Assembly: GCA_017646005.1 (NCBI GenBank)
Contig: JAGCNJ010000041.1
Location: forward strand, 3,363-67,362
DNA: 64,000 nucleotides
Direction: 5' to 3'
DNA from: Clostridia bacterium
Lineage (GTDB): Bacteria > Bacillota > Clostridia > Oscillospirales > CAG-272
Positions 12,801 to 41,683 of this stretch are shown in pieces. Below the pieces are notes generated by a model that was not told the origin of the DNA, searched no databases, and worked only from the letters and a program-made list of their open reading frames with translations. A program made the position numbers and the translations under genes. Numbering within the stretch: the first letter of the stretch is position 1; each line of letters opens with the position of its first letter.

Positions 12801-13850
12801 ATCAAGATCCGCCTTAAGGTTACTACCGAGGCAGACGAATTCAAGGTAACTCTTACCAAGAATGGTGAAGAAGGCGAAGCTATCGCGGAAATGACACCTA
12901 ATGACTGGGATACCGGAATCGTTTGCGTATACGATATGATCCGTCCCGGCAAGGCTTTCGACGGAAATTTCAACGGCGCACTTGCTATTTCCCCGTGGTC
13001 CGAGGGTGCAAAGCCTACCTACAACGTAGATACCGCAGATATCGAATATATCGGCTTCTTCCCCACCTATGCGGCGGCAGAGGCTTACAAGAGCGATCTT
13101 GAAGAAAATGCTGTAATGGTAAGCTTTTCTGTCGACGGCAAGGTAATAAGTGAGATTGCCGCAAAGAAGGGCGACACTCTCAAATACCCTGAGACCACGC
13201 CTTCAAAGTCCGCGAGCGTATTCAAGGGCTGGGACGTTGCAGAAGGTACGGTGATAAACGATAATCTCACAGTAAACGCAGTATTCGAAAAAACACCCGG
13301 TATGCCCTATGCTATGTTTGATGCAAGCAAGATCACGACAAAGATAAGCAATCACTTTGCCGAAAGCGTGCTTGAAGAAAACGGTAAAAAGTATCATCAC
13401 TTTGAAATCAAAGAAAATTCGGAATCTGCAGATGGTGTTCGCGTCTACACAAACTTTGCAAACGAAGCGTTTGATATAAAATCTGCGCCTGTTGCAAAGA
13501 TTGCTTTGAGAACAAATATAGCTTCATCTGATGCTCTTGATCTCAATGTATATCCTACCGCAAATCAGCGTATATGGGGCCCCAAGCCCAAATATACCGC
13601 AAAGGGTACCTGGACCGAAATGATACTCGATCTTTCTACGGCAAAGTTTATCGGCGGTGAGGGAGTTTCACAGGGACTTTCCGGCCCCGAATACTTCGAC
13701 ACATATTTTGACAACGGAGTATACGGTTTTCTCTTCAAGCCTTATCACCAAAACGGACTTGAAATGAAGGTCGGTGAATATATCGACATTATGGGCGTTG
13801 CATTCTTTGAAAGCGAAGCAGACGCAAATATGTTCTCGTTTGTAAAGTAA
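9891..13850 (+). CDS. giant secreted beta-helix protein, SLH-anchored paralog (N-module, beta-helix, 3xSLH, C1, Lis/Bac-like repeat, C2)
   Basis: I moved the start to ATG 9891 (MKKSNRTISIFLCIIMLLTSLPAISISA, RBS AGGAAAGGA). The ORF-track TTG start at 9849 is the last base of a TATAAT -10 box. Motifs are the same as in the other paralogs. SLH triad at ~12027-12565. Ends YIDIMGVAFFESEADANMF. Confidence 0.88.
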   Translation: MKKSNRTISIFLCIIMLLTSLPAISISAEESSVVAIATDLYYVYASGSKLDVSLESDDDGEYLRFSAAPGTYDNNGLVVNVSHHDVVALDYPYIKVGYRTDSQSVKVDVNMVSSKGENWVNKPADQLNNKNWNELIININDITGAGADKIPSPGEKAVNLRLKPWMSHSKTLSTPQYYDIRYVAYFKTEADAKAFKFDPKAGYDVAVDMEFIKSIPYYKADDATLNKYMNEALALKDDIISSKTDVKYTGKAYYVSSKGNDLNDGLTPATAWKSVTKVSNQDFLKEGDAVLFERGSIFRFEGGFTTKKGVTYSTYGSGAKPKFIGSIDASYPSDWLETGVENVYVYKKSLGGIEADVGQIVFDMGRAWGIKLMSGVYIGTNSNGLEMIPSETPKVNGPEGLKHDLEFWHDAESGKLYLYSKEENPAKRFSSIEIVDKGNGFSGNGNGVVIDNLDFFGFGSHGIGYGGTVTNLTVQNCVFGFIGGSRQGTDPNTTTRFGNAVEIFGACDGFIIRNCFAHNIYDCCWTIQFQGDPGDKGKWFKNVEFYNNVACYSNTGLEVWINNKGPNRELSMGIENMDLHHNYTFYNGYGWSQQRPNKDGNIFYGDPSITTTQYKNCSVHDNVGMFASKWLNYVRYTGLEHYNFNNNVYFQHNNKLFGGVAFNPAKSEGTIGQHKYDQATMGMLLATGFEPGSVFYYTEPDYKIPQYNPEIMKFDDITEKHWAYDYVEAAVMRNYFNGTSETTFAPDASMTRAMLVTVLSRITDEEIKVEKAPYTDVNQSAWYANAVNWAYSAGLIADGVTKFRPDDAATREEMADMLYRFTLGQYKVTAITDPALSFSDAASVTKDYAAGISFATSNGIISGYTDGTVKPKNTATRAEVATMIKRFVDLYKSLKTDFSYISSKTDYVVFTGNELNSITATSPGDKRMMNTDTDYPILRLIPQHPSSSGNYPRLMMFERLSKVNLADYPYIKIRLKVTTEADEFKVTLTKNGEEGEAIAEMTPNDWDTGIVCVYDMIRPGKAFDGNFNGALAISPWSEGAKPTYNVDTADIEYIGFFPTYAAAEAYKSDLEENAVMVSFSVDGKVISEIAAKKGDTLKYPETTPSKSASVFKGWDVAEGTVINDNLTVNAVFEKTPGMPYAMFDASKITTKISNHFAESVLEENGKKYHHFEIKENSESADGVRVYTNFANEAFDIKSAPVAKIALRTNIASSDALDLNVYPTANQRIWGPKPKYTAKGTWTEMILDLSTAKFIGGEGVSQGLSGPEYFDTYFDNGVYGFLFKPYHQNGLEMKVGEYIDIMGVAFFESEADANMFSFVK

Positions 13851-13895: not shown

Positions 13896-13946
13896 CTATA
13901 TTTGTTCATCCCTCCCTATATTTGTTCACAATTCGGAGTGTATAAT
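13896..13946 (+). promoter_or_regulatory. promoter of 13981-18420 with two exact 13-nt direct repeats in place of a -35 box
   Basis: CTATATTTGTTCA at 13896-13908 and 13916-13928 (20 nt start to start). TATAAT at 13941-13946, preceded by TG. I see no recognisable TTGACA at 17-nt spacing. Confidence 0.6.
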
Positions 13947-13980: not shown

Positions 13981-16900
13981 ATGAAAAGACGCGTTTGTTT
14001 GATTTTAACATTACTCGCGCTTCTCTGCCTGTTCTGCGCGATATGGGCAAGCAACGTATCCGGAACGGATGCTACACCATACTACGAAGCTGACAGTAAA
14101 ACCATTGAAAAATACACAAACGAGGCTATGGAGCTTGTAAAAAAGATCACAAACAGTCCCACCGAGGTTACCTGGACGGGTACGGCCTATTATATATCCG
14201 AAAACGGCAACGATTCAAATGACGGCCTTACTCCGACTACCGCATGGAAAAGCCCGCTTAAAGTATCGGAGGCGGATTTCTTGAAGCCCGGTGATGCAGT
14301 GCTGTTTGAACGTGGCGGCATCTATCGCTATGAAGGTACTATCACGACTGTTAAGGGCGTTACCTACTCTGCCTACGGAAGCGGCAAAAAGCCCAGGCTT
14401 ATCGGCTCTTACGATGCATCATATGAGGGTGCTTGGAAAGAGAGCGAATACGAAAACGTATATTACTTTGACAAGAGGATCGTAGGAGTACATTACGACG
14501 TTGGACAGATAGTATTCGATTTAGGCAAGGCGTGGGGTATCAAGGTACAGGATCACGTGGTTATAGGCGTTGCCTCCAACGGACTTGAAACTCTTGACCA
14601 CGGAACGCCGTCTATATCAAATCCGGGTGATCTTAAAAACGATCTTCAGTTCTGGCACGAATATGACAGCGGATACGTATATTTGTATTCAAAATACGGA
14701 AATCCCACCGACCGCTTTGACTCTATCGAGGTCGTTGACAGAGGAAACGCAATTGGCGGAAAAGGCACTGACGTTGTCATAGATAACCTTGAATTCTTCG
14801 GATTCGGAAGCCATGGCATCGGATACGGGCAGACCGAGAATCTTTTAGTTCAGAACTGCATATTCGGATTTATCGGCGGCTCCCGTATAAGAACCACCGA
14901 CGATCTCGGAAGATTCGGTAATGCGGTCGAGATATTCGGAAACGGTAACGGATATACGGTTAGAAACAACTTTGCCCACAACGTATATGACTGTTGCTGG
15001 ACTATCCAGTTCCAGGGTGATCCGGGTGAAAACGGAAAGCATTTCAAAAACGTTGAATTTGCAAACAACGTAAGCATGTTTTCGAATACAGGCCCCGAAA
15101 TATGGCTTGTAAATAATGACGGCAACCATCCCGATGCTCCTTCTTCAATGGAAAACGTGAGGGTCCACCACAACTACAATCTCTACAGCGGATACGGCTG
15201 GAGCCAGCAAAGACCTGTAAAGGACGCTAACTTCTTCTTCGGCGGTGAACGAGATGTCGGCTCAAAGAAGGAATTCATAAATTGCTCGGTAGACAACAAT
15301 GTAGTACTGTTTTCGACCAAATGGTTAAGCTACTTACGTTATCTCGGTCCCGACTATCACAACTTCAACAACAACGTATATTTCCAGCACAACGATAAGC
15401 TTTACGGCGGTATTCCCACCGATCCCGAAAACGCACTCGGCAAGCTTGTTGAATACAAGTACGATCTTGAAACCGTAAGCAATCTGCTTGAAAGCGGAAT
15501 CGAAGCAGGTTCAACCTTCTATTACGTTAACAGCGATTATGAAATAGCGCAGTACAGCCCGGAAATATTAAACTTCGAAGACATTAACAATCATTGGGCA
15601 CGCCGGAATATCCAAGCAACTATAATGCGCGGATATATGAACGGCATAAGTTCTTTTGAATTTGCGCCTAATGCTTCTATGACACGCTCGATGCTTACCA
15701 AGGTGCTTATGCGCCTTTACTACGACGATGAAGTGTTCACAGAAGCCCCTCTCTCCGATGTAAATCAGAGCTCGTGGTATTCAAGCTCGGTAAACTGGGC
15801 TTATAAACTCGGAATAATCGACAATAAACTCACAAAGTTCCGCCCCGACGAACCGATCACACGTGAGGAAATCGCTGATATGCTTTACAGACTCACCTAC
15901 AGCCGCTTCAAGTGTGAAAGCTACGAAGGAAAGGCACTTGATTTCACGGATGCGTCAAGTGTTTCTCCCGAATATGCGGCAGGTGTTGCGTTCGCAATAG
16001 AAAACGGTATTATATCGGGCTACACCGATGGACACGTAATGCCAAGAAACACTGCTACACGCGCCGAGGTGGTAACTATGATAAACAGATATTATGATCT
16101 TTACCACCAGCTTGAAACCGATTACAGCAGACTTACAACAAACAATACGACTTCCGTTGTATTTGACGCAAACGAGCTTTCCGGATTTGTTAAAGCAACA
16201 AATGGAAGCTTCTACGTGGAAAATCCCCAAACAGAAGCACCTGTACTTGTATTAAACCCGATTTACGGAAGCGGAAATTTCCCGAAGCTTGTAATAAACG
16301 AATCTACGGCAGATATAAATCTGTGCGATTACCCATATGTAAGATTCCATATTAAGCGTACAGGCAAGTCCAAGCTTTACAACGTTAAATTGGATAAAAG
16401 CAATGCTTCAAAGGACGGCGTTTACAACTTTGATTCCTCTGTATACGGCTATAACAGCTATATCTTCTGCGTATACGATATGTTCAAGCCGACAGAAATA
16501 TCAAACAGCTCAAAGGAGCTTTCGCTTACTCTTTCACCCTGGCATACGGGTGATGCTCCCGTATACGGCGTTGATACGGCAGAAATTGAATATATCGGAT
16601 TTTTCCCCTCTCTTGAAATGGCACAAAACTATGAGGGTGTATTTGAAAAGAACGGCGTAAAGGTAAGGTTCATCTTTGACGGTAAGGTCGTGGAAGAAGA
16701 ATATTTACTCTCTCAAAGCAAGTTTGAATATCCTGACATAAGCTTAAGCAAGCCCGGATATACCTTCAAGGGCTGGAGTATAGCCGAAGGTACTCTGATC
16801 ACAACCGACACCGATGTTTTTGCCGTATTTGAAAAAGCATCCGCTCAGCCCGTAGCGGTATACAATACCGATAATATGATCGTTACCGCAGGCACGGGAC

Positions 16901-18420
16901 TCGTCAGCTCGTATGAAAACGAAAACACAAAGAGCTACGTGCGCTTCAGCGTAACCGAAGACGGCAAGTCGGTTGATGGAACGTCTGCGACGATAGGACT
17001 TACAAATCTTGAATTTGATATAAAGAAAGCTCCTGTCGCAAAGGTACTTATGAGAACCAATATCGCTTCCTCGGACGTAATCGACCTGAACGTAGCAATT
17101 GCAAGCAACTGCAGGCTTTGGGGACCTAAGCCTGCATACGAAATCAAGAGTGAATGGTTTGAGCTTACGCTTGATTTTGCATCGTTAAACTATACCGGAG
17201 GTTCAAACGTTGACAAGGGACTTACCGCAAAGGAATACTATGAAAAGTACTTAAGCGGAAGCTTATACTCATTGATGTTCAAGCCCTATAAATCTGCAAA
17301 TACCGCTATGAAGAAGGGTGAGTACTTGGATATTCAAAGCATTGCATTCTTTGCAAATGAGGAAGATGCAAATGCATATTCCTTCGGTATGCCTGCATTG
17401 CTTCTTGACTCCAATAAGCTCACGGCTTTGGAAAACGACAAATTCACCGCACAGACCTTAAGCGAATTTTGCAACAGCTTTATTCGCCACACAGTTAAAG
17501 CAGACGGTAAGTCAAATCAGAACACAAGGATAACGCTCGGACTCGACAAGACCTACCGGGGAATTGAAAAAGCTCCGTTCGTCAAGCTTATGCTCAGAAC
17601 CAACATTGCATCTGCCGATAAGTTAAGCTTCGGACTTGGCAGTTCGACAGGCTCGGAGATTACAGGCACAAGCATAGAATACGGTCAAAAGGGACAGTGG
17701 TATGAGTACGTGCTTGATCTTTCAGATGCAGATTCAATTGAAGCAAGTTCGATCTTGATTTCTCCGTATTATGCAAACGAGATTGACATGAAGGCGGAAG
17801 AATATATAGATATTATGAGTATCGCTTTCTTCAAGAGCAAAAAGGACGCAATCGACTTTACCTACACATCTGTACCTACAGCGGCATTCACAGTCGACGG
17901 TATTACCCCTGTAGCAAGTGCCGATTTTACGCTCTCCACAGAAAATGAAAACGGCAAGAGATTTTACCGCTTCTATGTAAGTGAAAGCGGCAAATCGCTC
18001 GATTCAACAAGAGCTACGGCAGTATTGGATAATGCAAGCTTCAAGGTAAAGGACGCTCACATAGTCAAGCTGGCGATAAGAACAAACATTGCTTCCTCAA
18101 GTGCAATAGACTTCAATATTTACGTTGCTCAAAAAACGAGAATATGGGGACCTAAGCCCGAATACACTCGCAAGGGCGGATGGATGGAGCTCACGCTTGA
18201 TCTTTCCGCACTGAACTATACGGGCGGCGAAGGCGTCGAAAAGGGTCTTTCCCCGAATCAGTATTATGAAAAATATTTTACAAACAGTATTTATTCATTC
18301 ATGTTCAAGCCCTACTATCAGACCGGACGTGCTATGGTCAAGGGCGAATATTTCGATGTTTTGGGCATAGCATTCTTTGAGTCGCTCGAAGAAGCGGAAA
18401 AATTCTCGTTTATAAAGTAA
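13981..18420 (+). CDS. giant secreted beta-helix protein, SLH-anchored paralog (no N-module; C1 plus three tandem C2 modules)
   Basis: I moved the start to ATG 13981 (MKRRVCLILTLLALLCLFCAIWA, RBS GAGGAG). The track start at 13951 lies only 5 nt after the -10 box. SLH triad at ~15571-16110. Tandem C2 modules at 16837-17388, 17389-17871 (degenerate) and 17872-18417. Confidence 0.88.
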   Translation: MKRRVCLILTLLALLCLFCAIWASNVSGTDATPYYEADSKTIEKYTNEAMELVKKITNSPTEVTWTGTAYYISENGNDSNDGLTPTTAWKSPLKVSEADFLKPGDAVLFERGGIYRYEGTITTVKGVTYSAYGSGKKPRLIGSYDASYEGAWKESEYENVYYFDKRIVGVHYDVGQIVFDLGKAWGIKVQDHVVIGVASNGLETLDHGTPSISNPGDLKNDLQFWHEYDSGYVYLYSKYGNPTDRFDSIEVVDRGNAIGGKGTDVVIDNLEFFGFGSHGIGYGQTENLLVQNCIFGFIGGSRIRTTDDLGRFGNAVEIFGNGNGYTVRNNFAHNVYDCCWTIQFQGDPGENGKHFKNVEFANNVSMFSNTGPEIWLVNNDGNHPDAPSSMENVRVHHNYNLYSGYGWSQQRPVKDANFFFGGERDVGSKKEFINCSVDNNVVLFSTKWLSYLRYLGPDYHNFNNNVYFQHNDKLYGGIPTDPENALGKLVEYKYDLETVSNLLESGIEAGSTFYYVNSDYEIAQYSPEILNFEDINNHWARRNIQATIMRGYMNGISSFEFAPNASMTRSMLTKVLMRLYYDDEVFTEAPLSDVNQSSWYSSSVNWAYKLGIIDNKLTKFRPDEPITREEIADMLYRLTYSRFKCESYEGKALDFTDASSVSPEYAAGVAFAIENGIISGYTDGHVMPRNTATRAEVVTMINRYYDLYHQLETDYSRLTTNNTTSVVFDANELSGFVKATNGSFYVENPQTEAPVLVLNPIYGSGNFPKLVINESTADINLCDYPYVRFHIKRTGKSKLYNVKLDKSNASKDGVYNFDSSVYGYNSYIFCVYDMFKPTEISNSSKELSLTLSPWHTGDAPVYGVDTAEIEYIGFFPSLEMAQNYEGVFEKNGVKVRFIFDGKVVEEEYLLSQSKFEYPDISLSKPGYTFKGWSIAEGTLITTDTDVFAVFEKASAQPVAVYNTDNMIVTAGTGLVSSYENENTKSYVRFSVTEDGKSVDGTSATIGLTNLEFDIKKAPVAKVLMRTNIASSDVIDLNVAIASNCRLWGPKPAYEIKSEWFELTLDFASLNYTGGSNVDKGLTAKEYYEKYLSGSLYSLMFKPYKSANTAMKKGEYLDIQSIAFFANEEDANAYSFGMPALLLDSNKLTALENDKFTAQTLSEFCNSFIRHTVKADGKSNQNTRITLGLDKTYRGIEKAPFVKLMLRTNIASADKLSFGLGSSTGSEITGTSIEYGQKGQWYEYVLDLSDADSIEASSILISPYYANEIDMKAEEYIDIMSIAFFKSKKDAIDFTYTSVPTAAFTVDGITPVASADFTLSTENENGKRFYRFYVSESGKSLDSTRATAVLDNASFKVKDAHIVKLAIRTNIASSSAIDFNIYVAQKTRIWGPKPEYTRKGGWMELTLDLSALNYTGGEGVEKGLSPNQYYEKYFTNSIYSFMFKPYYQTGRAMVKGEYFDVLGIAFFESLEEAEKFSFIK
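16837..18417 (+). repeat. three tandem copies of the family C2 module (16837-17388, 17389-17871 degenerate, 17872-18417)
   Basis: Each copy has a ...[AP].VK[IL]..RTNIAS...D.N... stretch and ends EY[LIF]DI..IAFF....[DE]A..F. Copies 1 and 3 also carry R[IL]WGPKP.Y and LNYTGG..V.KGL...[EQ]YYEKY...S.YS.MFKPY. Confidence 0.85.
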
Positions 18421-18433
18421 ACCAAAGCAAAAG

Positions 18434-18466
18434 GTCTGTCGGAATTCCGGCAGACTTTTTGCTTTT
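18434..18466 (+). terminator. rho-independent terminator
   Basis: GTCTGTCGG-AATT-CCGGCAGAC stem followed by TTTTTGCTTTT. Confidence 0.75.
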
Positions 18467-18470
18467 ATAT

Positions 18471-18501
18471 CTATATTTGTTCATATTTGTTAATGTATAA
18501 T
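18471..18501 (+). promoter_or_regulatory. promoter of the beta-mannosidase gene carrying the same 13-nt motif
   Basis: CTATATTTGTTCA at 18471-18483, followed by the half-copy TATTTGTTAA. TATAAT at 18496-18501. The motif-to-TATAAT distance (25 nt) is identical to that at 13916/13941. Confidence 0.6.
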
Positions 18502-18543
18502 ATATTCACCACTTGTAAAAATCAGAAATAAGGAGTATCAAAA

Positions 18544-20931
18544 ATGTACTTAACAAAATGGAAAATGACCTACGGCACTCATAAGGATCTTCCCTGTACT
18601 GCTCCATGCAGTATGTACAGCGTTCTCCTGGATCACAAGATTATTGACGATCCCTTTTACGGTCTGAATGAAAGAAAATATATGCATCTTTCGGAAAATG
18701 GCTGCAGATTTGAATGTAGGTTTGATGTCGATCGCGATCTACTCTCAAAGGAGTATATTGAGCTTACCTTTCTCGGTCTTGACACAATATGTGATATCAC
18801 GCTTAACGGCACAAGTCTTGACAGCGTAAGGAATATGCACAGGGCGTATACCTATGACGTTAAAGCCCTGCTCAAAGAGGGTAATAATATAATCGAGCTT
18901 GACTTTGATTCTCCCGTTAAATTTTTTGAAGAGATGAACAACAAGCATTTTCTCTATACCAACGAGGACACTATTCCCGGTGCTGCTCATCTGAGAAAGG
19001 CTTTATATATGTCAGGCTGGGATTGGGGCCCGACTCTTCCCGATATGGGTATTTTCCGCCCAGTCATACTCGACGCCTATAACGAAGATAAGATAGATAA
19101 CGTAAACGTCCGCCAGCATCACGAAAACGGTGAGGTTACACTTGATATCGAGGTTGAAACCAAGCACGGCAAGAGCGTTGATATTTACACTGAGATCGAC
19201 GGCAAGGAGATCTTGCTCAAAAACGGTAAGGGTAAAATAAAAATAGAGAATCCAAATCTCTGGTGGGTAAGAGGCTACGGCGAGCAGTACCTTTATAAGC
19301 TCACCGTAAAGATGGTAAGCGAAGGCAAGATCATTGACACAGATACTAAAAGCATCGGTCTTCGCACACTTACTGTAAGCACCGAAAAGGATCCTACCGG
19401 AAGTGAATTCTGCTTTGTAATAAACGGTGTCAAGATCTTCTCTATGGGAGCAAACTACGTCCCTCAGGACAATTTGCTTTCACGTATAAATCCTCAAAGA
19501 ACCGAAGATCTTATAAGGACCGCGGTTGACGCCAACTTCAACACCATTCGTATATGGGGCGGCGGATACTATCCCGAGGATGAATTTTACGACATATGCG
19601 ATAAATACGGCATTATGGTGTGGGAGGACTTTATGATCGCCTGCATCAACGTATGGCTTACGAATGATATGAAAAAGGAGTTTATCGCTGAAGCCGAGTA
19701 TAACATAAAGCGTTTGCGTACCCATCCCTCGCTTGCACTTCTCTGCGGAAACAACGAGATGGAAGAAGGTGTTTGCAATTGGGGCATCGGAACAAGTATG
19801 CTCGTACGAGAGGATTATCTTGAGCTTTACGAGCGCATCTTCCCCGAAATTTGCGCAAGACTTGCTCCCGACGTATTCTACTGGCAGGCAAGTCCCTCTT
19901 CCGGAGGCGGCTTTGATGACCCTACCTGCGAAACCAAGGGCGACGTTCACTATTGGAAGGTTTGGCACGGCGGTGTACCCTTCACCGAATACCGCAAGCA
20001 CAATTTCCGCTTCTGCTCTGAATACGGCTTCGAATCTTTCCCTTCTTTCAAGACTATCAAGGAATTCTGTACCGAAGCAGATATGAACTGCTTTTCAAGA
20101 GTTATGGAAAACCATCAGAAATGCCCGGGCGGTAATAAAAAGATACTGATGTACATGGCAGACAACTACCTGTATCCCGTCACCTTTGAAACTATGGTTT
20201 ATGCTTCTCAGCTTTTGCAGGCAGATGCCATAAAATACGGCGTTGAGCATTTCAGACGCAAGAGGGGCTATTGCATGGGCTCGATATATTGGCAGTTCAA
20301 CGATTGCTGGCCTGTCGCTTCCTGGTCAAGCATTGACAGTAATCTCAGATACAAGGCTCTTCACTATGCGGCGAAAAAGTTCTATGCGCCGATCGAAATG
20401 GGACTTTTCCTTGAAAATGACACTCTTACCGTAAATATTTCCAACGAAACGATGAATGATTTTGAAGGAGAGGTAAGGCTTTATACAAGCACGTCTGACT
20501 TTGAAATAAAAGCCAAGAACATCTGTACGGCTTCGGTCGAAAGGCTCAAATCAGCAGATGTTATTACTGTAAAGGTCGATACAAGCGACAAGTATAACTC
20601 CTACGTATACGCAGACCTGTACGACAAGGACGGCAATTTCATTTGCAGAAACACTCAGCTTCTTACTGCGGCAAAGCACTTCGATTGGAAAAAGCCGTGT
20701 ATCAAGATCGATACACGCGACATAGACGGCGGCGTTGAGTTTTCGGTAACAAGCAACACCTTCACAAAGGGCGTAAATATTGATTTTGACGGATACGACG
20801 TTGTCCTGTCCGACAATTTCTTTGATATCACAAATGAAAACGCTTATGTTGTCACGGCAAAAACCGATCATTCAGCCGATGAGCTTGAAAAAGCAATTAA
20901 GATTATGACTGTTTACGATATCGGCAGATAA
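18544..20931 (+). CDS. GH2 beta-mannosidase, cytoplasmic (no signal peptide)
   Basis: N-terminal DPFYGLNE motif. TIM-barrel segment IRIWGGGYYPEDEFYDICDKYGIMVWEDFM. Candidate acid/base LLCGNNEMEE and nucleophile FCSEYGFESFPS. The 795-aa length is typical of bacterial GH2 mannosidases. RBS AAGGAG. Confidence 0.85.
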   Translation: MYLTKWKMTYGTHKDLPCTAPCSMYSVLLDHKIIDDPFYGLNERKYMHLSENGCRFECRFDVDRDLLSKEYIELTFLGLDTICDITLNGTSLDSVRNMHRAYTYDVKALLKEGNNIIELDFDSPVKFFEEMNNKHFLYTNEDTIPGAAHLRKALYMSGWDWGPTLPDMGIFRPVILDAYNEDKIDNVNVRQHHENGEVTLDIEVETKHGKSVDIYTEIDGKEILLKNGKGKIKIENPNLWWVRGYGEQYLYKLTVKMVSEGKIIDTDTKSIGLRTLTVSTEKDPTGSEFCFVINGVKIFSMGANYVPQDNLLSRINPQRTEDLIRTAVDANFNTIRIWGGGYYPEDEFYDICDKYGIMVWEDFMIACINVWLTNDMKKEFIAEAEYNIKRLRTHPSLALLCGNNEMEEGVCNWGIGTSMLVREDYLELYERIFPEICARLAPDVFYWQASPSSGGGFDDPTCETKGDVHYWKVWHGGVPFTEYRKHNFRFCSEYGFESFPSFKTIKEFCTEADMNCFSRVMENHQKCPGGNKKILMYMADNYLYPVTFETMVYASQLLQADAIKYGVEHFRRKRGYCMGSIYWQFNDCWPVASWSSIDSNLRYKALHYAAKKFYAPIEMGLFLENDTLTVNISNETMNDFEGEVRLYTSTSDFEIKAKNICTASVERLKSADVITVKVDTSDKYNSYVYADLYDKDGNFICRNTQLLTAAKHFDWKKPCIKIDTRDIDGGVEFSVTSNTFTKGVNIDFDGYDVVLSDNFFDITNENAYVVTAKTDHSADELEKAIKIMTVYDIGR

Positions 20932-20941
20932 AGGTTATATC

Positions 20942-21196
20942 AGACTCGATGCCGTGCTTGTTGAGGATGCTTCGACGCGATCGGTCATATTCACCGCAGA
21001 AAGCACGGAGGTTGCGGCAAATCTGAAATCGGATGAATACTTCGCAAATTATTTCAACGAGTCAATATCGCTTATCATAATAAAGCCATATAAGGCAGTG
21101 GGGATCTGAATGGATACCACGGAATATTATGATATCGCAGGCGTTGCGTTCTTCGCAAGCAAGGAGGATGCAGACAAGTATTCATTCTTCAAATAA
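20942..21196 (+). pseudogene. 3'-terminal remnant of a paralog (last ~80 codons of a C2 module) with an in-frame TGA
   Basis: Manual translation in the frame of nt 20942 reads RLDAVLVEDASTRSVIFTAESTEVAANLKSDEYFANYFNESISLIIIKPYKAVGI*MDTTEYYDIAGVAFFASKEDADKYSFFK*. It aligns to the C2 ends of the paralogs (e.g. GLSGPEYFDTYFDNGVYGFLFKPYHQNGLEMKVGEYIDIMGVAFFESEADANMFSFVK). TGA at 21107-21109. It has no start or upstream body and begins 11 nt after the mannosidase stop. Confidence 0.85.
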
Positions 21197-21204
21197 GGCA
21201 AAAG

Positions 21205-21240
21205 GCGTATCTTACAGCCATGTAAGATACGCTTTTTCTT
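21205..21240 (+). terminator. rho-independent terminator retained from the decayed paralog; now terminates the mannosidase transcript
   Basis: GCGTATCTTACA-GCCA-TGTAAGATACGC perfect 12-bp stem followed by TTTTTCTT. Confidence 0.8.
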
Positions 21241-21311
21241 CGACAAAAAAGTAATATTTCTTCGCAAAAATATTATAGCAAATTCGATTTTCGATATGAT
21301 ATAATATTTAC

Positions 21312-21565
21312 AAGCCTAATTTCCTTTTCGATCATACGCTTCCGCAACGTATATTGACGAGCGAAACGCGACCTTCGCTCACGGGTACGTTGCGGTAAGC
21401 GATGATATATTCAATAATATCACTGGTTTGACATACGTTTAAGACAGACTCACTTGAGAATAAAAAGCACGCTGTTACCATCCCTCTTGTTCCGATAAGC
21501 TAATTTCATATTTTCCTTTCCATAGAACATCCCTCCCCTGCAACATGCGGGAGGGATTTCGCTTT
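21312..21565 (+). ncRNA. candidate ~250-nt structured transcript or leader (function unknown)
   Basis: An orphan TGaTATAAT element lies at 21297-21305. A nested hairpin follows: outer stem 21337-21351 / 21386-21401 (15 bp, one bulge) and inner stem GAGCGAA 21359-21365 / TTCGCTC 21374-21380. A GC-rich hairpin (ATCCCTCCC 21529-21537 / GGGAGGGAT 21549-21557) is followed by the U-rich TTCGCTTTATCTTT. No ORF of 60 aa or more occurs on either strand in 21200-21660. Confidence 0.25.
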
Positions 21566-21664
21566 ATCTTTGATAATCTCATATCATACGTTTATATTGC
21601 AGTTTACAGTTTTCGAAATATGTATATTGAATAATATTACTCACATTCAAAATAATTTTTCTCA

Positions 21665-21693
21665 TTGACTTTAATCAAAAACTGTGTTAAAAT
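21665..21693 (+). promoter_or_regulatory. sigma-A-type promoter of 21734-25714
   Basis: TTGACT (21665-21670), 17-nt spacer, TGtTAAAAT (-10 at 21688-21693). Confidence 0.6.
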
Positions 21694-21733
21694 CAAAATG
21701 TGGAATATTATATTTTTGAAAGGACGCTCCATT

Positions 21734-24700
21734 ATGAAAAATAACGCTCGTTTTGTTTCACTGATTCTTTCACTTATTATGATTTTTTCTGCAATGCCTG
21801 CATTTTCGGCATCGGCAGAAGAAGCAAGCTACAAGATGCTCCCGGCAAGCGACTTGTTCTATTACTACGCTTCCCCGAGTGATCTTGAAACCACTCTCGT
21901 TGATACAGACGGCGGCTACGTACACTACGTTGCCGCGCCCGGCACTTACAACAATAACAACATTATGTTCACCGTAGGATACGGCGAGCTTGCAGCACTT
22001 GATTATCCTTATGCTGTCGTAGGCTACCGTACAAACTCCCAGCGTAACAGCATTGACGTCGGTCAGAATAACCGCTTGGGAGAAAACTGGATGAATAATA
22101 ATCCCGCTCAGAAAACAGACGGTTCATGGAGCACCCTTTTTATAAATATAAACGACATTAACGGCAACACCCAGCCCAATCTTCCCAAGCCGGGCGAAAC
22201 CGAGGTTACCTTGAGATTCAAGCCCTGGGGAAGCCATACCAAAACGCTCGGTGTTGAACAGTATTACGATCTGCGTTTCGTCGCTTTCTTCAAAAATGAG
22301 GCAGAGGCAAAGGCGTTCAAATTCGATCCGAACACAAAATATGAATCCGAAATATCGCCTGAGTATATGGAAAACATTCCTTACCACGAGGCAACAGATG
22401 AGCTTATAAACAAGTATTTGGCAGAAGCAGAGGCTCTTAAGGAATCTATCATAAATTCCCCCTCAAGTGTAAAGTGGACAGGTACTGCTTACTACGTTTC
22501 ACCTAAGGGTAACGATGAAAACGACGGTCTTACACCTGCTACAGCATTCAAGACAGTAGACAAGGTATCACACGCATCCTTCTTAAAGGAAGGCGATGCC
22601 GTGCTTTTCGAGCGTGGCGGCACATACAGAACCACAGGCTACCTCGCGACCAAAAACGGTATCACTTATTCCGCATACGGCTCGGGCGCAAAGCCTAAGA
22701 TAATCGGCTCGATAGATGCTTCCTACGAAGCATTATGGAGAGAGACCGAGCATGAAAACGTATATGCGTTCACGCCAAACGTCGGCGGTGCCGGATACGA
22801 TATCGGTCAGATCGTATTTGATATGGGCAAGGCGTGGGGCATCAAGCTTCAGAACGGTCTGTGGATCGGTACAAACTCAAACGGACTTGGTATAATCGAA
22901 AGCGGAACTCCCATAATCGACGGTCCTGAGGACATTAAGCACGACCTTGAATATTGGCACGACTGGGACAGAGGTACTGTATACCTTTACAGCAAGGACG
23001 GCAACCCCGCTTCGCGCTTTACATCGATCGAGATCGTTGATAAGGGCAACGGTATCAGCGGCGGTGCTAACAACGTAGTTATCGACAACCTCGAGCTTTT
23101 CGGCTTCGGAAGCCACGGTATAGGATACGGTGGTATTGGCGATGCTGCCAAGCAAAACCTTACGGTACAGTACTGCATATTCAGCTTTATAGGCGGTTCG
23201 CGTCAATATACAGACCCGTCTGTAAATACCCGCTTCGGTAACGCTGTGGAAATATACGGCGCTGCAAAGGGCTTTATCATCCACGACTGCTATGCCAACA
23301 ACGTCTACGACTGCTGTTGGACAATTCAGTATCAGTCAGACTCCGAGGGCGTTGACGTATGGTTTGAGGACGTTGAATTTTACAACAACGTAGCCTGCTA
23401 TTCAAATACCGGTCTTGAGGTATGGCTCAACAATAAGGCAGAGTACAATAACGACGCTGTCTACGGTATGAAGAATATGCGTCTCCACCACAACTACACC
23501 TACTACAACGGCTACGGCTGGAGCCAGCAAAGACCTAATAAGGACGGTAACATTTTCTACGGCGACCCGAGTGTTACAAACACGGTTTATGAAAACTGCT
23601 CGGTAGATCACAACGTAGGCTTGTTCGCATCCAAGTGGATAAATTACCTGCGCTACGTAGGCTCGAACTACTACAACTTCAACAACAACGTATATTTCCA
23701 GCACGAAAACAAGCTTTACGGCGGCGTACCTGCTAACCCCGAAAAGGGTACGGGAGCTGTCGGTCAACACAAATACGAGCGCGCTACGATGTCAAGGCTT
23801 CTTGCCACAGGCTTTGAAAAGGGCTCTGTGTTCTATTACACCAAGGAAGACTACAAGATCCCGCAGTATGATCCCGCACTTGTAAGCTTTGATGATATTA
23901 CAGAAAAGCACTGGGCTTACGATTACGTCAAGACCGCGGTTATGAGAAACTATTTCAATGGTACTGCTCCCGCAACCTTCTCGCCTGACACATCAATGAC
24001 CCGCGCAATGCTCGTTACCGTGCTTTCGCGTATCACAAACGAAAAGGCTGAAAGCAAAAAGGCTACCTATACTGACGTTAACGCATCCGCTTGGTATGCA
24101 AATGCGGTAAACTGGGCTTACAGCGCAGGGCTCGTTGCAGACGGTATTACAAAATTCCGTCCCGACGATGCAGTAACGCGTGAGGAGCTTGCAGATATGC
24201 TCTACCGACTCACGCTCAATCAGTATAAGACAAACGAATATGACGGAAAGGCTCTTGATTTCTCGGATGCATCAAGCGTATCTCCCGAATACAAGGCAGG
24301 TGTTGCCTTCGCTACAGACATCGGCGTTATTTCGGGCTACACCGACGGAAGTGTAAAGCCGAAGAATACGGCTACACGCGCCGAGGTAGCAACAATGATC
24401 TGCAGATTCGTTCAGAAGTATTACGGCTTTGAAACAGACTTCAGCAAAATGAGTGACGCGACCGACAGCAAGATATTTGCAGGCAATGAATTAAACGCAA
24501 TACTTGCAACCTCTCCCGGTGACAAGCGTATGATGAATAAGGATACCGAAAATCCCTTGGTAAGACTTATTCCTCAGCATATATCACAGTCGTCCGCAAA
24601 GCCTCAGCTGCTTATTTTCGAGCGCATCTCCAATGTGGACTTTGCAAAATATCCCTACATCAAGCTCAGAATGAAGACAACAAGCACAAGCACCGGCTTT

Positions 24701-25714
24701 AAGCTCTGGATGAACAAAAACGGGGCATCCGGCGAAATAATCGCTCCTATTGTGACCGATGAATGGTGTGACGTTGTTGTCTGCATCTACGATATAATCA
24801 ATCCTGATACCGAGATATACAATGGTGAGCTTAATGCTTCGCTTTATATCTCCCCGTGGTCCGAGATTGTCGCTCCCGGATACAATGTCGATTACTGCGA
24901 TATCGAATACATAGGCTTCTTCCCCACTAAGGCGGCAGCGCAGGCTTATCAAAGCGATTTCCAGAAAAATTCGGTAACCGTAACCTATATGTTCGGAAGC
25001 ACAGAGGTTACCTCCCTTCCCACAAAAAAGGGTCAGACCCTTACCTACCCGAACATCACACCCTCAAGAAAGGGCTACACCTTCAAGGGCTGGGATATAG
25101 CAGAGGGTACTGTTATAAACGATAATCTTACCGTAAACGCTGTATTTGAAAAGACTCCCGGTGTACCTATGGCAGTATTTACCGCTGACAACACCGAAAG
25201 CACCGCAACCGGCGGACTCAGCTCCGAAACAGTGGAAGAAAACGGCATAAAATACGTACACTTCTACGTTCCCGATGAGGTTTCCTCCAAGGATGGTACA
25301 CGCGCAAACCTTATCCTTTCGGATTCGGAAGCATACAACGTAGCCACCGCCCCCATAATCAAGATTTGCTACAGGACGAACATCGCTTCATCAAGTGCGA
25401 TCGACTTCAACCTCAGACCCGATCAAGGCAATCGCTTATGGGGACCGTTTGTTGATTATGCAGGCAAGGGCGAATGGGTCGAGCAAATAATCGACCTTTC
25501 GAAGCTTGGTTGGAACGGAGGCGAGGATGTTGTGCCAAATCTCACAAGCGAAGAATACTTCAACGAGTATTTTAAGGACACACTTTACTCCTTCATTTTC
25601 AAGCCGTACAAGTCTAACGGACTTTTGATGAGAAAGGACGAATACTTCGATTTCAAATACGTTGCATTCTTTGAAACCGAAGAGGATGCGAAGATTTATA
25701 AATTTGATAAATAA
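21734..25714 (+). CDS. giant secreted beta-helix protein, SLH-anchored paralog (N-module, beta-helix, 3xSLH, C1, Lis/Bac-like repeat, C2)
   Basis: I moved the start to ATG 21734 (MKNNARFVSLILSLIMIFSAMPAFSASA). The track TTG start at 21665 is the first base of a TTGACT -35 box. SLH triad at ~23882-24425. Ends YFDFKYVAFFETEEDAKIY. Confidence 0.88.
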   Translation: MKNNARFVSLILSLIMIFSAMPAFSASAEEASYKMLPASDLFYYYASPSDLETTLVDTDGGYVHYVAAPGTYNNNNIMFTVGYGELAALDYPYAVVGYRTNSQRNSIDVGQNNRLGENWMNNNPAQKTDGSWSTLFININDINGNTQPNLPKPGETEVTLRFKPWGSHTKTLGVEQYYDLRFVAFFKNEAEAKAFKFDPNTKYESEISPEYMENIPYHEATDELINKYLAEAEALKESIINSPSSVKWTGTAYYVSPKGNDENDGLTPATAFKTVDKVSHASFLKEGDAVLFERGGTYRTTGYLATKNGITYSAYGSGAKPKIIGSIDASYEALWRETEHENVYAFTPNVGGAGYDIGQIVFDMGKAWGIKLQNGLWIGTNSNGLGIIESGTPIIDGPEDIKHDLEYWHDWDRGTVYLYSKDGNPASRFTSIEIVDKGNGISGGANNVVIDNLELFGFGSHGIGYGGIGDAAKQNLTVQYCIFSFIGGSRQYTDPSVNTRFGNAVEIYGAAKGFIIHDCYANNVYDCCWTIQYQSDSEGVDVWFEDVEFYNNVACYSNTGLEVWLNNKAEYNNDAVYGMKNMRLHHNYTYYNGYGWSQQRPNKDGNIFYGDPSVTNTVYENCSVDHNVGLFASKWINYLRYVGSNYYNFNNNVYFQHENKLYGGVPANPEKGTGAVGQHKYERATMSRLLATGFEKGSVFYYTKEDYKIPQYDPALVSFDDITEKHWAYDYVKTAVMRNYFNGTAPATFSPDTSMTRAMLVTVLSRITNEKAESKKATYTDVNASAWYANAVNWAYSAGLVADGITKFRPDDAVTREELADMLYRLTLNQYKTNEYDGKALDFSDASSVSPEYKAGVAFATDIGVISGYTDGSVKPKNTATRAEVATMICRFVQKYYGFETDFSKMSDATDSKIFAGNELNAILATSPGDKRMMNKDTENPLVRLIPQHISQSSAKPQLLIFERISNVDFAKYPYIKLRMKTTSTSTGFKLWMNKNGASGEIIAPIVTDEWCDVVVCIYDIINPDTEIYNGELNASLYISPWSEIVAPGYNVDYCDIEYIGFFPTKAAAQAYQSDFQKNSVTVTYMFGSTEVTSLPTKKGQTLTYPNITPSRKGYTFKGWDIAEGTVINDNLTVNAVFEKTPGVPMAVFTADNTESTATGGLSSETVEENGIKYVHFYVPDEVSSKDGTRANLILSDSEAYNVATAPIIKICYRTNIASSSAIDFNLRPDQGNRLWGPFVDYAGKGEWVEQIIDLSKLGWNGGEDVVPNLTSEEYFNEYFKDTLYSFIFKPYKSNGLLMRKDEYFDFKYVAFFETEEDAKIYKFDK

Positions 25715-25719
25715 CCTCA

Positions 25720-25755
25720 AATGCCTCGGAAGCAGATGTTTCCGAGGCATTTTTA
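25720..25755 (+). terminator. rho-independent terminator
   Basis: AATGCCTCGGAA-GCAGATG-TTCCGAGGCATT perfect 12-bp stem followed by TTT. Confidence 0.8.
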
Positions 25756-25785
25756 TGCAATTTTTGACAAAAAGCAAAAAAATAG

Positions 25786-25814
25786 TTGCATATTTCTTCG
25801 CGTAGTGGTATACT
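25786..25814 (+). promoter_or_regulatory. sigma-A-type promoter of the VanY-type gene
   Basis: TTGCAT (25786-25791), 17-nt spacer, TGgTATACT (-10 at 25809-25814). Confidence 0.55.
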
Positions 25815-25861
25815 GTAATAAGTATGTAAAAGGGATAGCGGGCACCCGCACGGTTATACAG

Positions 25862-27430
25862 ATGAAAAACAAGATTAATATCGGACAAATACTTAAATTC
25901 TTAAAGCTTTTGGGAATTGAAGCCCTGCGTTTTATCAGATCAAAAACAGGTCTGCTTGTGTGCGGCATTATACTTGCGGGACTTATTATATCACTTCTCA
26001 TAGGAGCGCTTTTTTCTTCAAATAAAACGGATGAAACAAGTGAAATCACAACCGAAAGTGAAACAGTGATAACAAGTGAGTGTTTAACGTCCGAGCTCAT
26101 AACCGAATCCCCCGACTACACGCCCGAGGTACCTGAAATAACCGATTCCGAATCCGAAACCGACAGTGAGGCCGTGACCGAAAAAAGACTTACCCTTGCG
26201 GATATGGAAATACCCGACACCTCATGGGCTTACTTTATGATAAACCGTTCAAATCCTGTCCCTGACGGTTATATAAACAATATCGAATTCAAAAGCGTAT
26301 ACTCGAACTATTCAAATTTTTATCTTGATGCGCGCGTTGCTGATTTTGCAAAGTGTATGATAAACGATGCAGAGAATGACGGTGTTATTCTTCTTATCTG
26401 CTCGGCGTACAGATCGCATGAGCGTCAGACTGCCAATTTTGACAACCGCGTAAAATCTTACGCTTCGGCAAAATACAGCTTCACAAGCGCATATGCACTC
26501 ACCGCCGGATATATAGCGATACCCGGCACAAGTGAGCACGAAACAGGTCTTGCGATAGACTTCATAACCCCCGGATACACCTCGCTCGACTCAGGCTTTG
26601 AACGCACGAGCGCATACAAATGGCTTGCCGAAAATTCATACAAATACGGATTTATTCTCCGATATCCCTCCGGTACAAGCGAGCTTACCGGCATCAACTA
26701 CGAGCCGTGGCATTTCCGCTTCATAGGCTTTGAGCACGCACAAAAGATTTACGAAAGCGGACTTTGTCTTGAGGAATATATGGAAAAGGACCGTGAGACC
26801 AATCCCGATCTGAGCTTCAACACACTTGAAGCACTCAAGATCCCGGCACAGCCCGCGTGGTATGAGTATTATCTCAATCCGCCGGCAGACACCGAATCCG
26901 AAAGCGAAACCGATTCGGCTGAAAGTGACAGTACCGAAACAGAATCTGACTCTGATTCAACCGAATCCGACAGCATAGAAACAGATTCCGATTCATCTGA
27001 ATCCGACAGCACGGAGACAAATTCAGACTTAACAGAATCCGAAAACGTCGATATAGAATCTGAGTCCGACACATCCGAAAGCTACAGCGCTGATACCGAA
27101 TCAGCCATTGATACGTCCGAGACCGACAGTACAGACACCGAATCGGATACAGAATCAGATACATACGAGGATATCACCGAAGAATCCGACACAATAGCGT
27201 CGGACGACAGCGAGATCGCAGAAGAAACCGAAGCTGAAATCGAATCCGATACGGAATTTGTCTACAAGCCGATAACACTTGAGGATCTCGGTATTTCTAC
27301 CAAAGAGTCAGAAAATGATTCCGGGGACACAACAGAGTCTGCCGATACGGTACAACCGGATAACACAGACACAGATACCACAGAGAACATTGATTCCGAA
27401 ATGATCGAGGAAACAGATGAAATTATTTGA
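25862..27430 (+). CDS. membrane-anchored VanY-type D-alanyl-D-alanine carboxypeptidase (peptidase M15B) with acidic Ser/Thr/Asp/Glu-rich tracts
   Basis: Motifs SAYRSHERQ, GTSEHETGLAIDF and EPWHFRFIG. N-terminal TM segment LLVCGIILAGLIISLLIGALF. I moved the start to ATG 25862 because the track start at 25721 lies inside the upstream terminator hairpin and before the promoter at 25786-25814. Confidence 0.82.
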   Translation: MKNKINIGQILKFLKLLGIEALRFIRSKTGLLVCGIILAGLIISLLIGALFSSNKTDETSEITTESETVITSECLTSELITESPDYTPEVPEITDSESETDSEAVTEKRLTLADMEIPDTSWAYFMINRSNPVPDGYINNIEFKSVYSNYSNFYLDARVADFAKCMINDAENDGVILLICSAYRSHERQTANFDNRVKSYASAKYSFTSAYALTAGYIAIPGTSEHETGLAIDFITPGYTSLDSGFERTSAYKWLAENSYKYGFILRYPSGTSELTGINYEPWHFRFIGFEHAQKIYESGLCLEEYMEKDRETNPDLSFNTLEALKIPAQPAWYEYYLNPPADTESESETDSAESDSTETESDSDSTESDSIETDSDSSESDSTETNSDLTESENVDIESESDTSESYSADTESAIDTSETDSTDTESDTESDTYEDITEESDTIASDDSEIAEETEAEIESDTEFVYKPITLEDLGISTKESENDSGDTTESADTVQPDNTDTDTTENIDSEMIEETDEII

Positions 27431-40000: not shown

Positions 40001-40160
40001 GGTTTGATCCGCTTGAATCAGGCAAAACAAGAGACGTTTCCCCGACAAGTGCAAGCATGGACACGACTACAGCCGCTGCACTTAAAAGTGCAACGACAGC
40101 AAAAAGTATGCCTGTTCCCTTCCTATTTATATCAAGATTAAAGCCAATCGCCATGTCCAT
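37074..40160 (-). CDS. membrane-anchored fusion: GHL10 (YngK-like glycosyl-hydrolase-like) domain plus C-terminal N-acetylmuramoyl-L-alanine amidase (Amidase_3)
   Basis: N-terminal TM segment GILFAVVALLSAAAVVVSMLALV. GHL10-like RGVWIATVNNINFPS...NAVYFQVRAHADAFYNS...GIKVHAWINPLRV. C-terminal VIVLDAGHGGRDVGASG...MISIHQNS...IEVGFMTNVEEYERI. Confidence 0.75.
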   Translation of the reverse strand: MDMAIGFNLDINRKGTGILFAVVALLSAAAVVVSMLALVGETSLVLPDSSGSNPIVTLLEKGADTLGTRAILDPDAEVRGVWIATVNNINFPSKKGLSEAQLKNELDAIIENCVNNKLNAVYFQVRAHADAFYNSEIYPISEYLTGEQGKALKGGFDPLEYLVKQGHLAGIKVHAWINPLRVTYGSKASPEHDVSKLYKDHPARLHPEYTVAYGDGKLYFNAGIPEVRELVVSGVREIAENYDVDGIVFDDYFYPYVSYTGDKKDVFDDSDAYKKYSDGKALNDWRRDNINKLVKASYDAVKETDSEILFGISPFGIWQNDDGKNGGSKTKGTQSYSELYGDALAWINGGYIDYIAPQLYWKFTEESSRYDTLVRWWNAVCDGTGVDLLISHGAYRYAEGWSGEGNEILNQIEFARSELSYRGSLLYGYDVIAKNTEGICEELALAFEESIVYSDAQSDNSGVVFNSPANGSTLASLKQTYVLGSSDPAYPVYYNGQKISRTKRGYFSHMLELESGKNELVFTQNGKDYIFTVYNGTSQSTASGSQVQSYKVMDEYKIVPVAPAGDIFTSAGEAINVKVKAPAGSEVVCTLGKNSVRLVDEEKVTGSDKGKLYEATYSGKILLPKAAEGEILDLGELKVISTKGDYRAEEMLAKVRVGGKNAVIPVEVKAERTGLKIAPDSYYYDDFTSQAQGMRDNAVSLSDGYYLLRVGGYVAQNDVRELDNDVPIAKVSGAEVKNDGAHTKIIIDSDVNIPLNGRVEDGYFILNLYNVDTKSAPVPTLLDNALFESVKVETSTKKNCYRYHLKLKNEDNFFGFEFAYENGKTVVKLRNPSGLSSGALPLDGRVIVLDAGHGGRDVGASGAASIYNEAALNLSIVNLTREKLEALGASVVLTRADDSYIALADRMGYVEDLAPDLMISIHQNSMDYSVDITKIRGLVALYWEYAGRSLSNIMSEKLSLALGRLNRGADTQKLAMVRCERYPSTLIEVGFMTNVEEYERISSPQGTEKASQAIADAVIEYYKRQTFK

Positions 40161-41623: not shown

Positions 41624-41654
41624 TATTTCCCTGCCGCCTACAAAAGTTTTTTTA

Positions 41655-41683
41655 ATTATACACGCCTTTTGCAGTAATGTCAA
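41655..41683 (-). promoter_or_regulatory. consensus promoter of the AraC-family gene
   Basis: The minus strand reads TTGACA (41683-41678), 17-nt spacer, TATAAT (41660-41655). Confidence 0.65.

Follow-up and report, generated by a model that had tools for sequence, protein, structure and literature searches.

SLH-anchored surface proteins of the Firmicutes carry a signal peptide and three SLH repeats, and the exo-beta-mannosidases of family GH2 (BtMan2A; PDB 2je8, 2vjx, 6byc, and 5n6u) share a five-domain architecture. The displacement of a gene in situ, or the capture of a promoter or terminator by a relocated gene, is a known general concept. Bacterial pseudogene relics are said to result from deletional bias, a general concept for which Mira, Ochman, and Moran (2001) may be cited as an example. 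Here, we investigated positions 18434 to 21240 of a 64,000-nucleotide (nt) stretch of contig JAGCNJ010000041.1 (GenBank assembly GCA_017646005.1, a Clostridia bacterium of the Oscillospirales lineage CAG-272), where an intact GH2 beta-mannosidase gene stands among giant surface-protein genes; "the window" means that whole stretch. The paralogs of this array are called A to E in their order, and X is a paralog of which a relic is left directly downstream of the mannosidase gene. We consider it likely that the segment is a gene-turnover scar in a tandem array of giant SLH-anchored surface-protein genes with carbohydrate-binding module (CBM)-like modules, the mannosidase gene now standing in the place of X.

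The array takes up the first 26 kb of the window, with all genes on the same strand, and the GH2 gene (18544-20931) lies between D and E. Like other SLH-anchored proteins of the Firmicutes, the paralogs have an N-terminus that resembles a signal peptide, as judged by inspection, and three SLH repeats each (PF00395, E ~1e-30), together with a conserved C-terminal module. They differ from the typical proteins in that the SLH triplet is internal, in their length of 1,320-1,490 amino acids (aa), in their repeated CBM-like modules, and in the organization of their genes, at least six of which stand in tandem in an array with rapid turnover from species to species. The features of the segment and of its left border are the following.

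13897..13946, plus strand: promoter of D in the C-D intergenic region, with TATATTTGTTCA at 13897-13908 and 13917-13928 and an extended -10 element TGTATAAT at 13939-13946
13981..18420, plus strand: paralog D, 1479 aa, containing the C-terminal module in three copies as well as three SLH repeats
18424..18465, plus strand: intrinsic terminator of D, a 19-bp stem followed by a U-run (dG -29.3 kcal/mol, z -8.4)
18472..18501, plus strand: putative promoter of the mannosidase gene, with TATATTTGTTCA at 18472-18483, CATATTTGTTAA at 18482-18493, and TGTATAAT at 18494-18501
18530..18535, plus strand: ribosome-binding site AAGGAG, read from the sequence, 8 nt before the mannosidase ATG
18544..20931, plus strand: intact GH2 beta-mannosidase gene, 795 aa
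20930..21010, plus strand: relic of X, piece 1, ~27 codons from the start of the C-terminal module, with the sequence KGYIRLDAVLVEDASTRSVIFTAESTEV
21011..21196, plus strand: relic of X, piece 2, the last 61 codons and the stop codon, with a TGA at 21107-21109
21200..21237, plus strand: intrinsic terminator of X, a hairpin and a U-run (dG -22.7 kcal/mol, z -7.7)

Orthologs of E were used to find informative relatives, this gene serving as the synteny anchor (72% aa identity to its ortholog in the genome L086 and 82% nt identity to that in L089). L089 is a 5.9-kb contig of a closely related species, 82% identical to the window in nucleotides across E and the neighboring VanY gene, and its copy of X was found only by inspecting the region upstream of an 87%-identical E homolog. 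The contig begins inside an open X reading frame, of which the last 304 codons are visible, and 311 nt separate its end from the downstream E ortholog. Because an open X stands at the syntenic position in this relative, the relic in the window is the remnant of a specific lost gene. A second related species, represented by L086 and L093 (E 72% and C ortholog 75% identical), has the order SLH1357 - SLH1318 - S1320 (the C ortholog) - AraC (minus strand) - S1329 - a 786-aa Big_2/GDSL-lipase/dockerin gene - E' - VanY - IspD - enolase. The X fragment of L089 is closest to S1329 (48% over 304 aa versus at most 40% for all other paralogs), and S1329 occupies the same slot, between the C ortholog and the GDSL/dockerin gene with E'. 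Neither a mannosidase gene nor a D-like gene is present in the L086 array. The first-pass annotation had placed the mannosidase gene in the slot of a former paralog and proposed to look in related genomes for an intact paralog, or for the absence of the mannosidase gene, at this position; the comparison bears the placement out, with the open 3' end of X exactly there in L089 and S1329 in the slot of the mannosidase-free L086 array.

The relic was recognized as a paralog end by a hidden Markov model (HMM) of six paralog C-termini from the window, which matches 21005-21193 in one frame (HMM positions 138-200 of 200, E 9.5e-24), and by BLASTX, with 39-49% identity to every paralog C-terminus. Its stop codon (TAA, 21194-21196) coincides in position with those of A, C, D, and E. 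It had previously been read as the last ~80 codons of a paralog (20942-21196) that begin 11 nt after the mannosidase stop codon. The homology holds, whereas the continuity does not: the first ~21 of these codons (20942-21004) come from the start of the module. The distance has to be corrected as well, as homology to X begins at 20930 and overlaps the TAA stop codon of the mannosidase gene by two bases in another frame. Piece 1 matches NGDLKVNAVLVKDESTRSLVFTADNLEV of the L089 copy, ~195 codons before its stop, and not the upstream continuation of piece 2. The relic accordingly consists of two pieces, joined near 21005-21013 by an in-frame internal deletion of ~324 nt (~108 codons). Over the last 62 codons, piece 2 is 80% identical to the L089 copy in nucleotides and 84% in amino acids. 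The in-frame TGA at 21107-21109 is present, as the first-pass annotation had reported, and L089 has TGG in its place, reading "...KAVGIWMDTTEYYDIAGVAFFA..." where the window has "GI*MDTT", so that the nonsense codon arose from a Trp codon by a TGG to TGA change.

A full-length open reading frame (ORF) with signal peptide and SLH repeats is absent at this place, with ~90 of ~1,320 codons left. Because of this loss, the 108-codon deletion, and the TGA, we class the relic as a pseudogene relic and not as a member gene of the family; it has no function of its own. When the 87-aa relic was compared with 5.8 billion proteins, the sole match was its own 51-aa ORF, with no close intact copy among them, and the best identity among 91 family members was 47.5%, so none of those members is an ortholog. 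Relative to the L089 copy, the ratio of non-synonymous to synonymous substitution rates (dN/dS) is 0.10 in piece 1 and 0.06 in piece 2, where 24 of the differences are synonymous and 12 non-synonymous. Nearly all of the divergence was therefore accumulated under purifying selection, which argues that the truncation of X is probably recent. As in other pseudogenes produced by deletional bias, X is truncated, carries an internal deletion and a nonsense codon, adjoins a second gene decayed to fragments, and has an open copy in a sister genome. Unlike the usual relics of this kind, its 5' end falls on the stop codon of the incoming gene, and its terminator has apparently been re-used. Deletional decay ordinarily yields such relics, and the sister genome makes this one unusually well documented.

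In public annotations, 20954-21109 is a 51-aa "hypothetical protein" (J6V93_02675), which is actually the front part of the relic up to the TGA. This ORF should be annotated as a pseudogene fragment, and the entry downstream of the mannosidase gene is hereby corrected to a piece of a gene.

The mannosidase gene itself is complete. All four Pfam domains (Glyco_hydro_2_N2, PF22666; Glyco_hydro_2, PF00703; Mannosidase_ig, PF17786; Ig_mannosidase, PF17753) score above their cut-offs, and residues 4-785 align to BtMan2A over its full length (E 1e-141). The window enzyme has the same five-domain architecture and shares the "CGNNE" acid/base and "SE(Y/F)GF" nucleophile motifs of BtMan2A-type GH2 enzymes: in the alignment, "lcgnnemee" stands opposite "wcgnneile" at the acid/base and "fcseygfesfp" opposite "fmsefgfqsfp" at the nucleophile. 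The native C-terminus ...VYDIGR* is conserved in all orthologs, so the gene runs to its native stop. Since this end is kept and the relic starts at 20930, the incoming gene and the truncated paralog meet at the stop codon. The N-terminus MYLTKWKMTYGTHKDL shows no hydrophobic stretch on inspection, and the alignment pairs its residue 4 with residue 15 of the BtMan2A chain. Because no N-terminal signal sequence is apparent in this way, the protein is presumably cytoplasmic, in which it would differ from BtMan2A-type enzymes. By its sequence it is an ordinary member of the GH2 beta-mannosidases with predicted exo-beta-mannosidase activity, for which manno-oligosaccharides or Man-beta-1,4-GlcNAc may be candidate substrates.

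Its closest homologs are 75-80% identical, similar to the values of E against its own orthologs. A foreign origin was considered and gained no signal from the compositional test: GC content matches that of the neighboring genes, as does GC content at third codon positions (0.515 versus 0.47-0.56). The contexts of the orthologs are varied and unrelated, with genes for NagA-like, ROK, SDF, and GH1 proteins, a PGA_cap gene, or housekeeping genes; some orthologs adjoin NagA-like, ROK, GH1, and GH20 genes. The C-terminal module of the array family was found near none of 83 ortholog loci (1.25 Mb; orthologs of up to 80% identity). As the mannosidase gene is never in the array at those 83 loci, its placement there is specific to the window's lineage, and the gene seems to belong to the clade and to have been relocated, as opposed to being foreign. 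Five independent assemblies made from different samples show the arrangement with 100% identity across 18421-21733.

The features that the first-pass annotation had named in this segment exist at or near the places it gave, far beyond chance, including the signals on both sides of the mannosidase gene. The terminators of D and X stand directly after the stop codons, no shuffled sequence folded as well, and the terminator of C has the same form. The hairpin at 21200-21237, described before as a paralog-style terminator after the relic, holds up as such; it is homologous in position and form to the X terminator of L089 and is the first terminator downstream of the mannosidase gene, which has none of its own. 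Upstream, the D-mannosidase intergenic region of 123 nt comprises, in order, the D terminator, TATATTTGTTCA, a degenerate copy of it, TGTATAAT, and a 42-nt leader with AAGGAG. The degenerate copy CATATTTGTTAA has two mismatches and overlaps the first copy. The C-D intergenic region has the same order, with a terminator, two exact copies of TATATTTGTTCA 20 nt apart, and TGTATAAT, and the alignment of the two regions is significant (z 6.9, 0/300 shuffles). A 15-nt block, TCTATATTTGTTCAT, is identical upstream of the mannosidase gene and of D within regions that have otherwise diverged.

Against the promoters of A, B, C, and E, the intergenic regions of L086 and L089, and the upstream regions of eight mannosidase orthologs, the D-mannosidase region gave z values of at most 2.0 throughout. 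Since it resembles the C-D region alone, the motif is a feature of the D promoter rather than of the family at large. Exact copies of the 12-mer TATATTTGTTCA occur in the 64 kb only at 13897, 13917, and 18472, and among 92 fetched loci only in contigs of the same species, whereas A, B, C, and E have ordinary promoters of the TTGAC(A/T)/TGnTAnAAT type without it. The claim of a D-like terminator and motif-bearing promoter before the mannosidase gene is thus upheld for D and does not extend to the family. The likeness is more than generic promoter sequence, being specific to the C-D region, and the family-type regulation deduced from it is not established, given that only D shares the motif promoter.

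Both the D promoter and the putative mannosidase promoter lack a TTGACA-like -35 element at proper spacing and have the direct repeat instead, which suggests that they may depend on a shared DNA-binding factor; co-regulation of D and the mannosidase gene would follow the same reasoning and is to be taken as predicted. The repeats are spaced 20 nt apart at D versus 10 nt at the mannosidase gene, and the two promoters differ by 20 nt in the span between first repeat and -10 element; these differences are close to whole helical turns, which is weak evidence. No candidate regulator for the repeat was identified in the window, and the consensus sequences of LytTR, SigE, and SigK, compared by eye, do not fit it consistently, particularly in view of the unequal repeat spacing. 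A search of 18300-21800 against Rfam returned no riboswitch or small RNA in leader or spacer, only a sub-threshold match to IS128 (19.7 bits against a gathering cut-off of 80). The direct-repeat promoter element common to one surface-protein gene and the mannosidase gene provides a small testable lead.

Between the terminator of X and gene E lies a spacer of 537 nt with further remains, in the order given here.

21342..21479, plus strand: relic of a GDSL-lipase/dockerin gene in two pieces, homologous to the 786-aa protein of L086
21525..21575, plus strand: orphan terminator-like hairpin with a T-rich tail (dG -20.4, z -4.0)
21665..25714, plus strand: paralog E with its promoter; the promoter starts at 21665 (TTGACT, 17 nt spacing, TGTTAAAAT), and the gene runs from the ATG at 21734 to 25714

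The stretch 21342-21435 matches residues 564-593 of the L086 protein (60% aa and 70% nt identity, E 6e-8), and 21441-21479 matches residues 667-679 in a different frame, i.e., frame-shifted. The fragments lie at the syntenic place, as the intact gene fills that slot in L086, and the hairpin at 21525-21575 is possibly the terminator of the lost gene. The mannosidase-E spacer is a small graveyard of genes, in which the X 3' end, its terminator, the GDSL/dockerin fragments, and the E promoter follow one another in a mirror of the intact order of L086. The large dockerin gene G of the window was considered as the relocated GDSL/dockerin gene and rejected, because at 53% identity to the L086 gene it is a paralog.

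In the reconstruction that we favor, the ancestral order would have been ...C - (AraC) - X - GDSL/dockerin gene - E - VanY - IspD - enolase. A complete, presumably cytoplasmic GH2 exo-beta-mannosidase gene, which stands elsewhere in relatives, would have taken the place of X in the window's lineage. X would have lost its promoter and ~1,130 codons of its 5' part, up to the junction on the mannosidase stop codon, as well as the ~108 internal codons, and would have gained the TGG-to-TGA change, and the neighboring GDSL/dockerin gene would have decayed to its two short fragments. The mannosidase gene would now be transcribed from 18472-18501, a promoter without canonical -35 in which the TATATTTGTTCA direct repeat precedes an extended -10, an arrangement seen otherwise only in front of D. 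Transcription would start a few bases after TGTATAAT (18494-18501) and end at 21238-21245, so that the transcript would carry the X relic, ~270 nt of dead sequence, as its 3' untranslated region and stop at the old terminator of X. Promoter use, transcript ends, and the order of events are what we infer in this account. Much as in displacement in situ or signal capture, an unrelated gene stands in a paralog slot and is framed by array-typical signals; the difference is that the motif is common only to D, so capture of X's own promoter is conjectural. Re-use of an array-type promoter and of a dead gene's terminator amounts to a regulatory capture that is plausible but unproven.

Several points weigh against this reconstruction. 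The 5' part of X and its upstream region were not recovered in any relative, L089 starting inside X, and metagenome scans with the L089 X peptide and a back-translated MDTTEYYDIAGVAFFA pattern did not find the 5' end or promoter either. The present promoter of the mannosidase gene is therefore only a candidate for that of X, and the promoter of its relative S1329 in L086 lacks the motif. A clear ortholog of D is missing from L086, which leaves room for a joint arrival of D and the mannosidase gene. The putative mannosidase promoter is also a consensus-level call, and a generic promoter scan did not list it. Three histories, i.e., (a) one-step replacement of the 5' 85% of X with capture of its promoter, (b) insertion followed by deletion, and (c) import of D and the mannosidase gene as a block, cannot be separated with the data. 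The junction at the stop codon favors (a) or (c), and the motif-free promoter of S1329 speaks mildly against (a).

A two-step course without promoter capture is possible, though we give it considerably less credence than the replacement of X. The mannosidase gene would have landed between D and an intact X, maybe with its own expression signals or behind the downstream region of D, and ~3.5 kb would have been deleted later, between a point right behind its stop codon and the interior of X. Deletional decay is clearly active here (the GDSL/dockerin relic has two deletions, and X has its internal one), the S1329 promoter without motif fits such a course, and the mannosidase leader "AATCAG...AGGAG" resembles the leaders of some mannosidase orthologs. 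However, the junction falls exactly on the stop codon, a spot that a separate deletion at a later time would have hit only by chance. Upstream of the -10 element, the sequence is demonstrably D-type, and the D-mannosidase intergenic region is not significantly similar to those upstream of mannosidase orthologs (z at most 2.0, as above).

It appears unlikely that one recombination event brought in D, its downstream intergenic region, and the mannosidase gene as a unit from another part of the genome, at the expense of AraC and the 5' part of X. Compared with L086, AraC and the 5' part of X are missing from the window, and D and the mannosidase gene are present between C and E, as such an event would leave it; the motif is common to the two genes, and D has no ortholog among the 91 family members (best 52%). 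Yet the adjacency of D and the mannosidase gene was seen nowhere else among the examined loci, and the C-D intergenic region would need to serve as left junction and motif source at once. D was also considered as a chimera with the 5' part of X, which we rejected since it is least similar to the X relative S1329 (45%).

That the X relic still functions, either through its 51-aa ORF or as a selected element of the 3' untranslated region, would explain the dN/dS of 0.06-0.10 and accords with the in-frame internal deletion and with the ORF being called in public annotations; we find this very improbable, since most of the beta-sandwich is missing, ribosome-binding site and signal peptide are absent, a nonsense codon is present, the only database homolog is the relic itself, and a low dN/dS is expected anyway if the truncation is recent. 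An assembly or binning chimera joining unrelated contigs at the mannosidase gene would be conceivable in a metagenome-assembled genome, yet it has next to no chance of being correct when five independent assemblies agree completely across the segment and both flanks are syntenic with relatives.

Returning to the replacement of X by the mannosidase gene, the first-pass annotation had also allowed that the relic could be part of an independent pseudogene with no relation to the mannosidase junction; this is not so, as the relic abuts the mannosidase stop codon. The locus shows gene turnover clearly, yet as an ordinary event in an array that evolves fast, with nothing categorically new. It provides a dated, base-level example of turnover in the giant surface-protein arrays of uncultured gut Clostridia. 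Across three related genomes, the same slot is filled by a paralog, by a GDSL esterase gene, or by a mannosidase gene.

The position of the mannosidase gene had further been taken as a hint that the substrate of the array family contains mannose. The family's C-terminal module of ~185 aa (in D at 17866-18417, with equivalent ends in Z, A, B, C, and E) is not covered by any Pfam or NCBIfam model. Its AlphaFold2 model (pLDDT 96.3) is a beta-sandwich, for which Foldseek lists CIA30/NDUFAF1 as the best match, alongside CBM11, CBM29, CBM30, and CBM4 (E 1e-5 to 1e-3, TM ~0.5). The modeled fold is like that of these proteins at a sequence identity of only 9-15%. As modeled, it is glycan-binding-like but generic, and no mannose specificity can be read from it. 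Since a GDSL esterase gene held the same slot in one relative, with a paralog there in another, its occupancy looks opportunistic, and the position of the mannosidase gene is weak evidence on the ligand of the family. With a generic CBM-like module and an opportunistic slot, the mannose hint is not established. A bolder extension, in which the TATATTTGTTCA repeat would be the operator of a dedicated activator, the mannosidase gene would be wired into the circuit of D, the modules of D would recognize a beta-mannoside glycan (plant mannan or the N-glycan core), and the relocation would adaptively build a new glycan-utilization unit in a Gram-positive gut anaerobe, seems to us a long shot.

Internal copies of the C-terminal module occur in D (aa 1084-1145 and 1266-1305) and in B (aa 1068-1124), and a shorter related motif recurs near the N-termini of the paralogs and in the dockerin proteins F and G. 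The remaining paralogs of the array are listed here.

1668-5627, same strand as the rest of the array: paralog A
5786-9766, same strand as the rest of the array: paralog B
9891-13850, same strand as the rest of the array: paralog C

Some observations concern the arrays of the relatives. The E ortholog of L089 (1229-5212) is called as two ORFs of 1054 and 241 aa, though the DNA aligns with E of the window throughout; the split reflects either a faulty assembly or a pseudogene with a frameshift or nonsense mutation. One array gene varies between two assemblies of the L086 species: it is intact in L093 (5672-9725, 1318 aa) and split into ORFs of 241 and 1128 aa in L094 (3482-7438), which suggests a within-species inactivation polymorphism. 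An AraC-family regulator gene (L086 2216-3067, minus strand) stands between the C ortholog and the X relative and is absent from the window's array; the AraC gene at 40823-41683 of the window was rejected as its relocated counterpart at 26% identity.

On its 3' side, the array is flanked by VanY-like, IspD, and enolase genes. The VanY-domain gene (25721-27430) and its counterparts in L081-L084 have called lengths of 558, 564, 569, and 613 aa in otherwise near-identical strains, which suggests a variable repeat or a variable start and stop. The organism is an uncultured, spore-forming gut clostridial lineage of the Oscillospiraceae type, with spoIIIA genes at 54-58.6 kb of the window, and public copies of the sequence carry the annotation "MAG: Clostridia bacterium". 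F and G (44872-49752 and 49856-53881) encode two large dockerin-bearing GDSL-esterase proteins in a part of the genome rich in SLH proteins, and 37074-40160 (minus strand) encodes a 1028-aa protein with a GHL10 (glycosyl-hydrolase-like 10) domain and a C-terminal N-acetylmuramoyl-L-alanine amidase domain.

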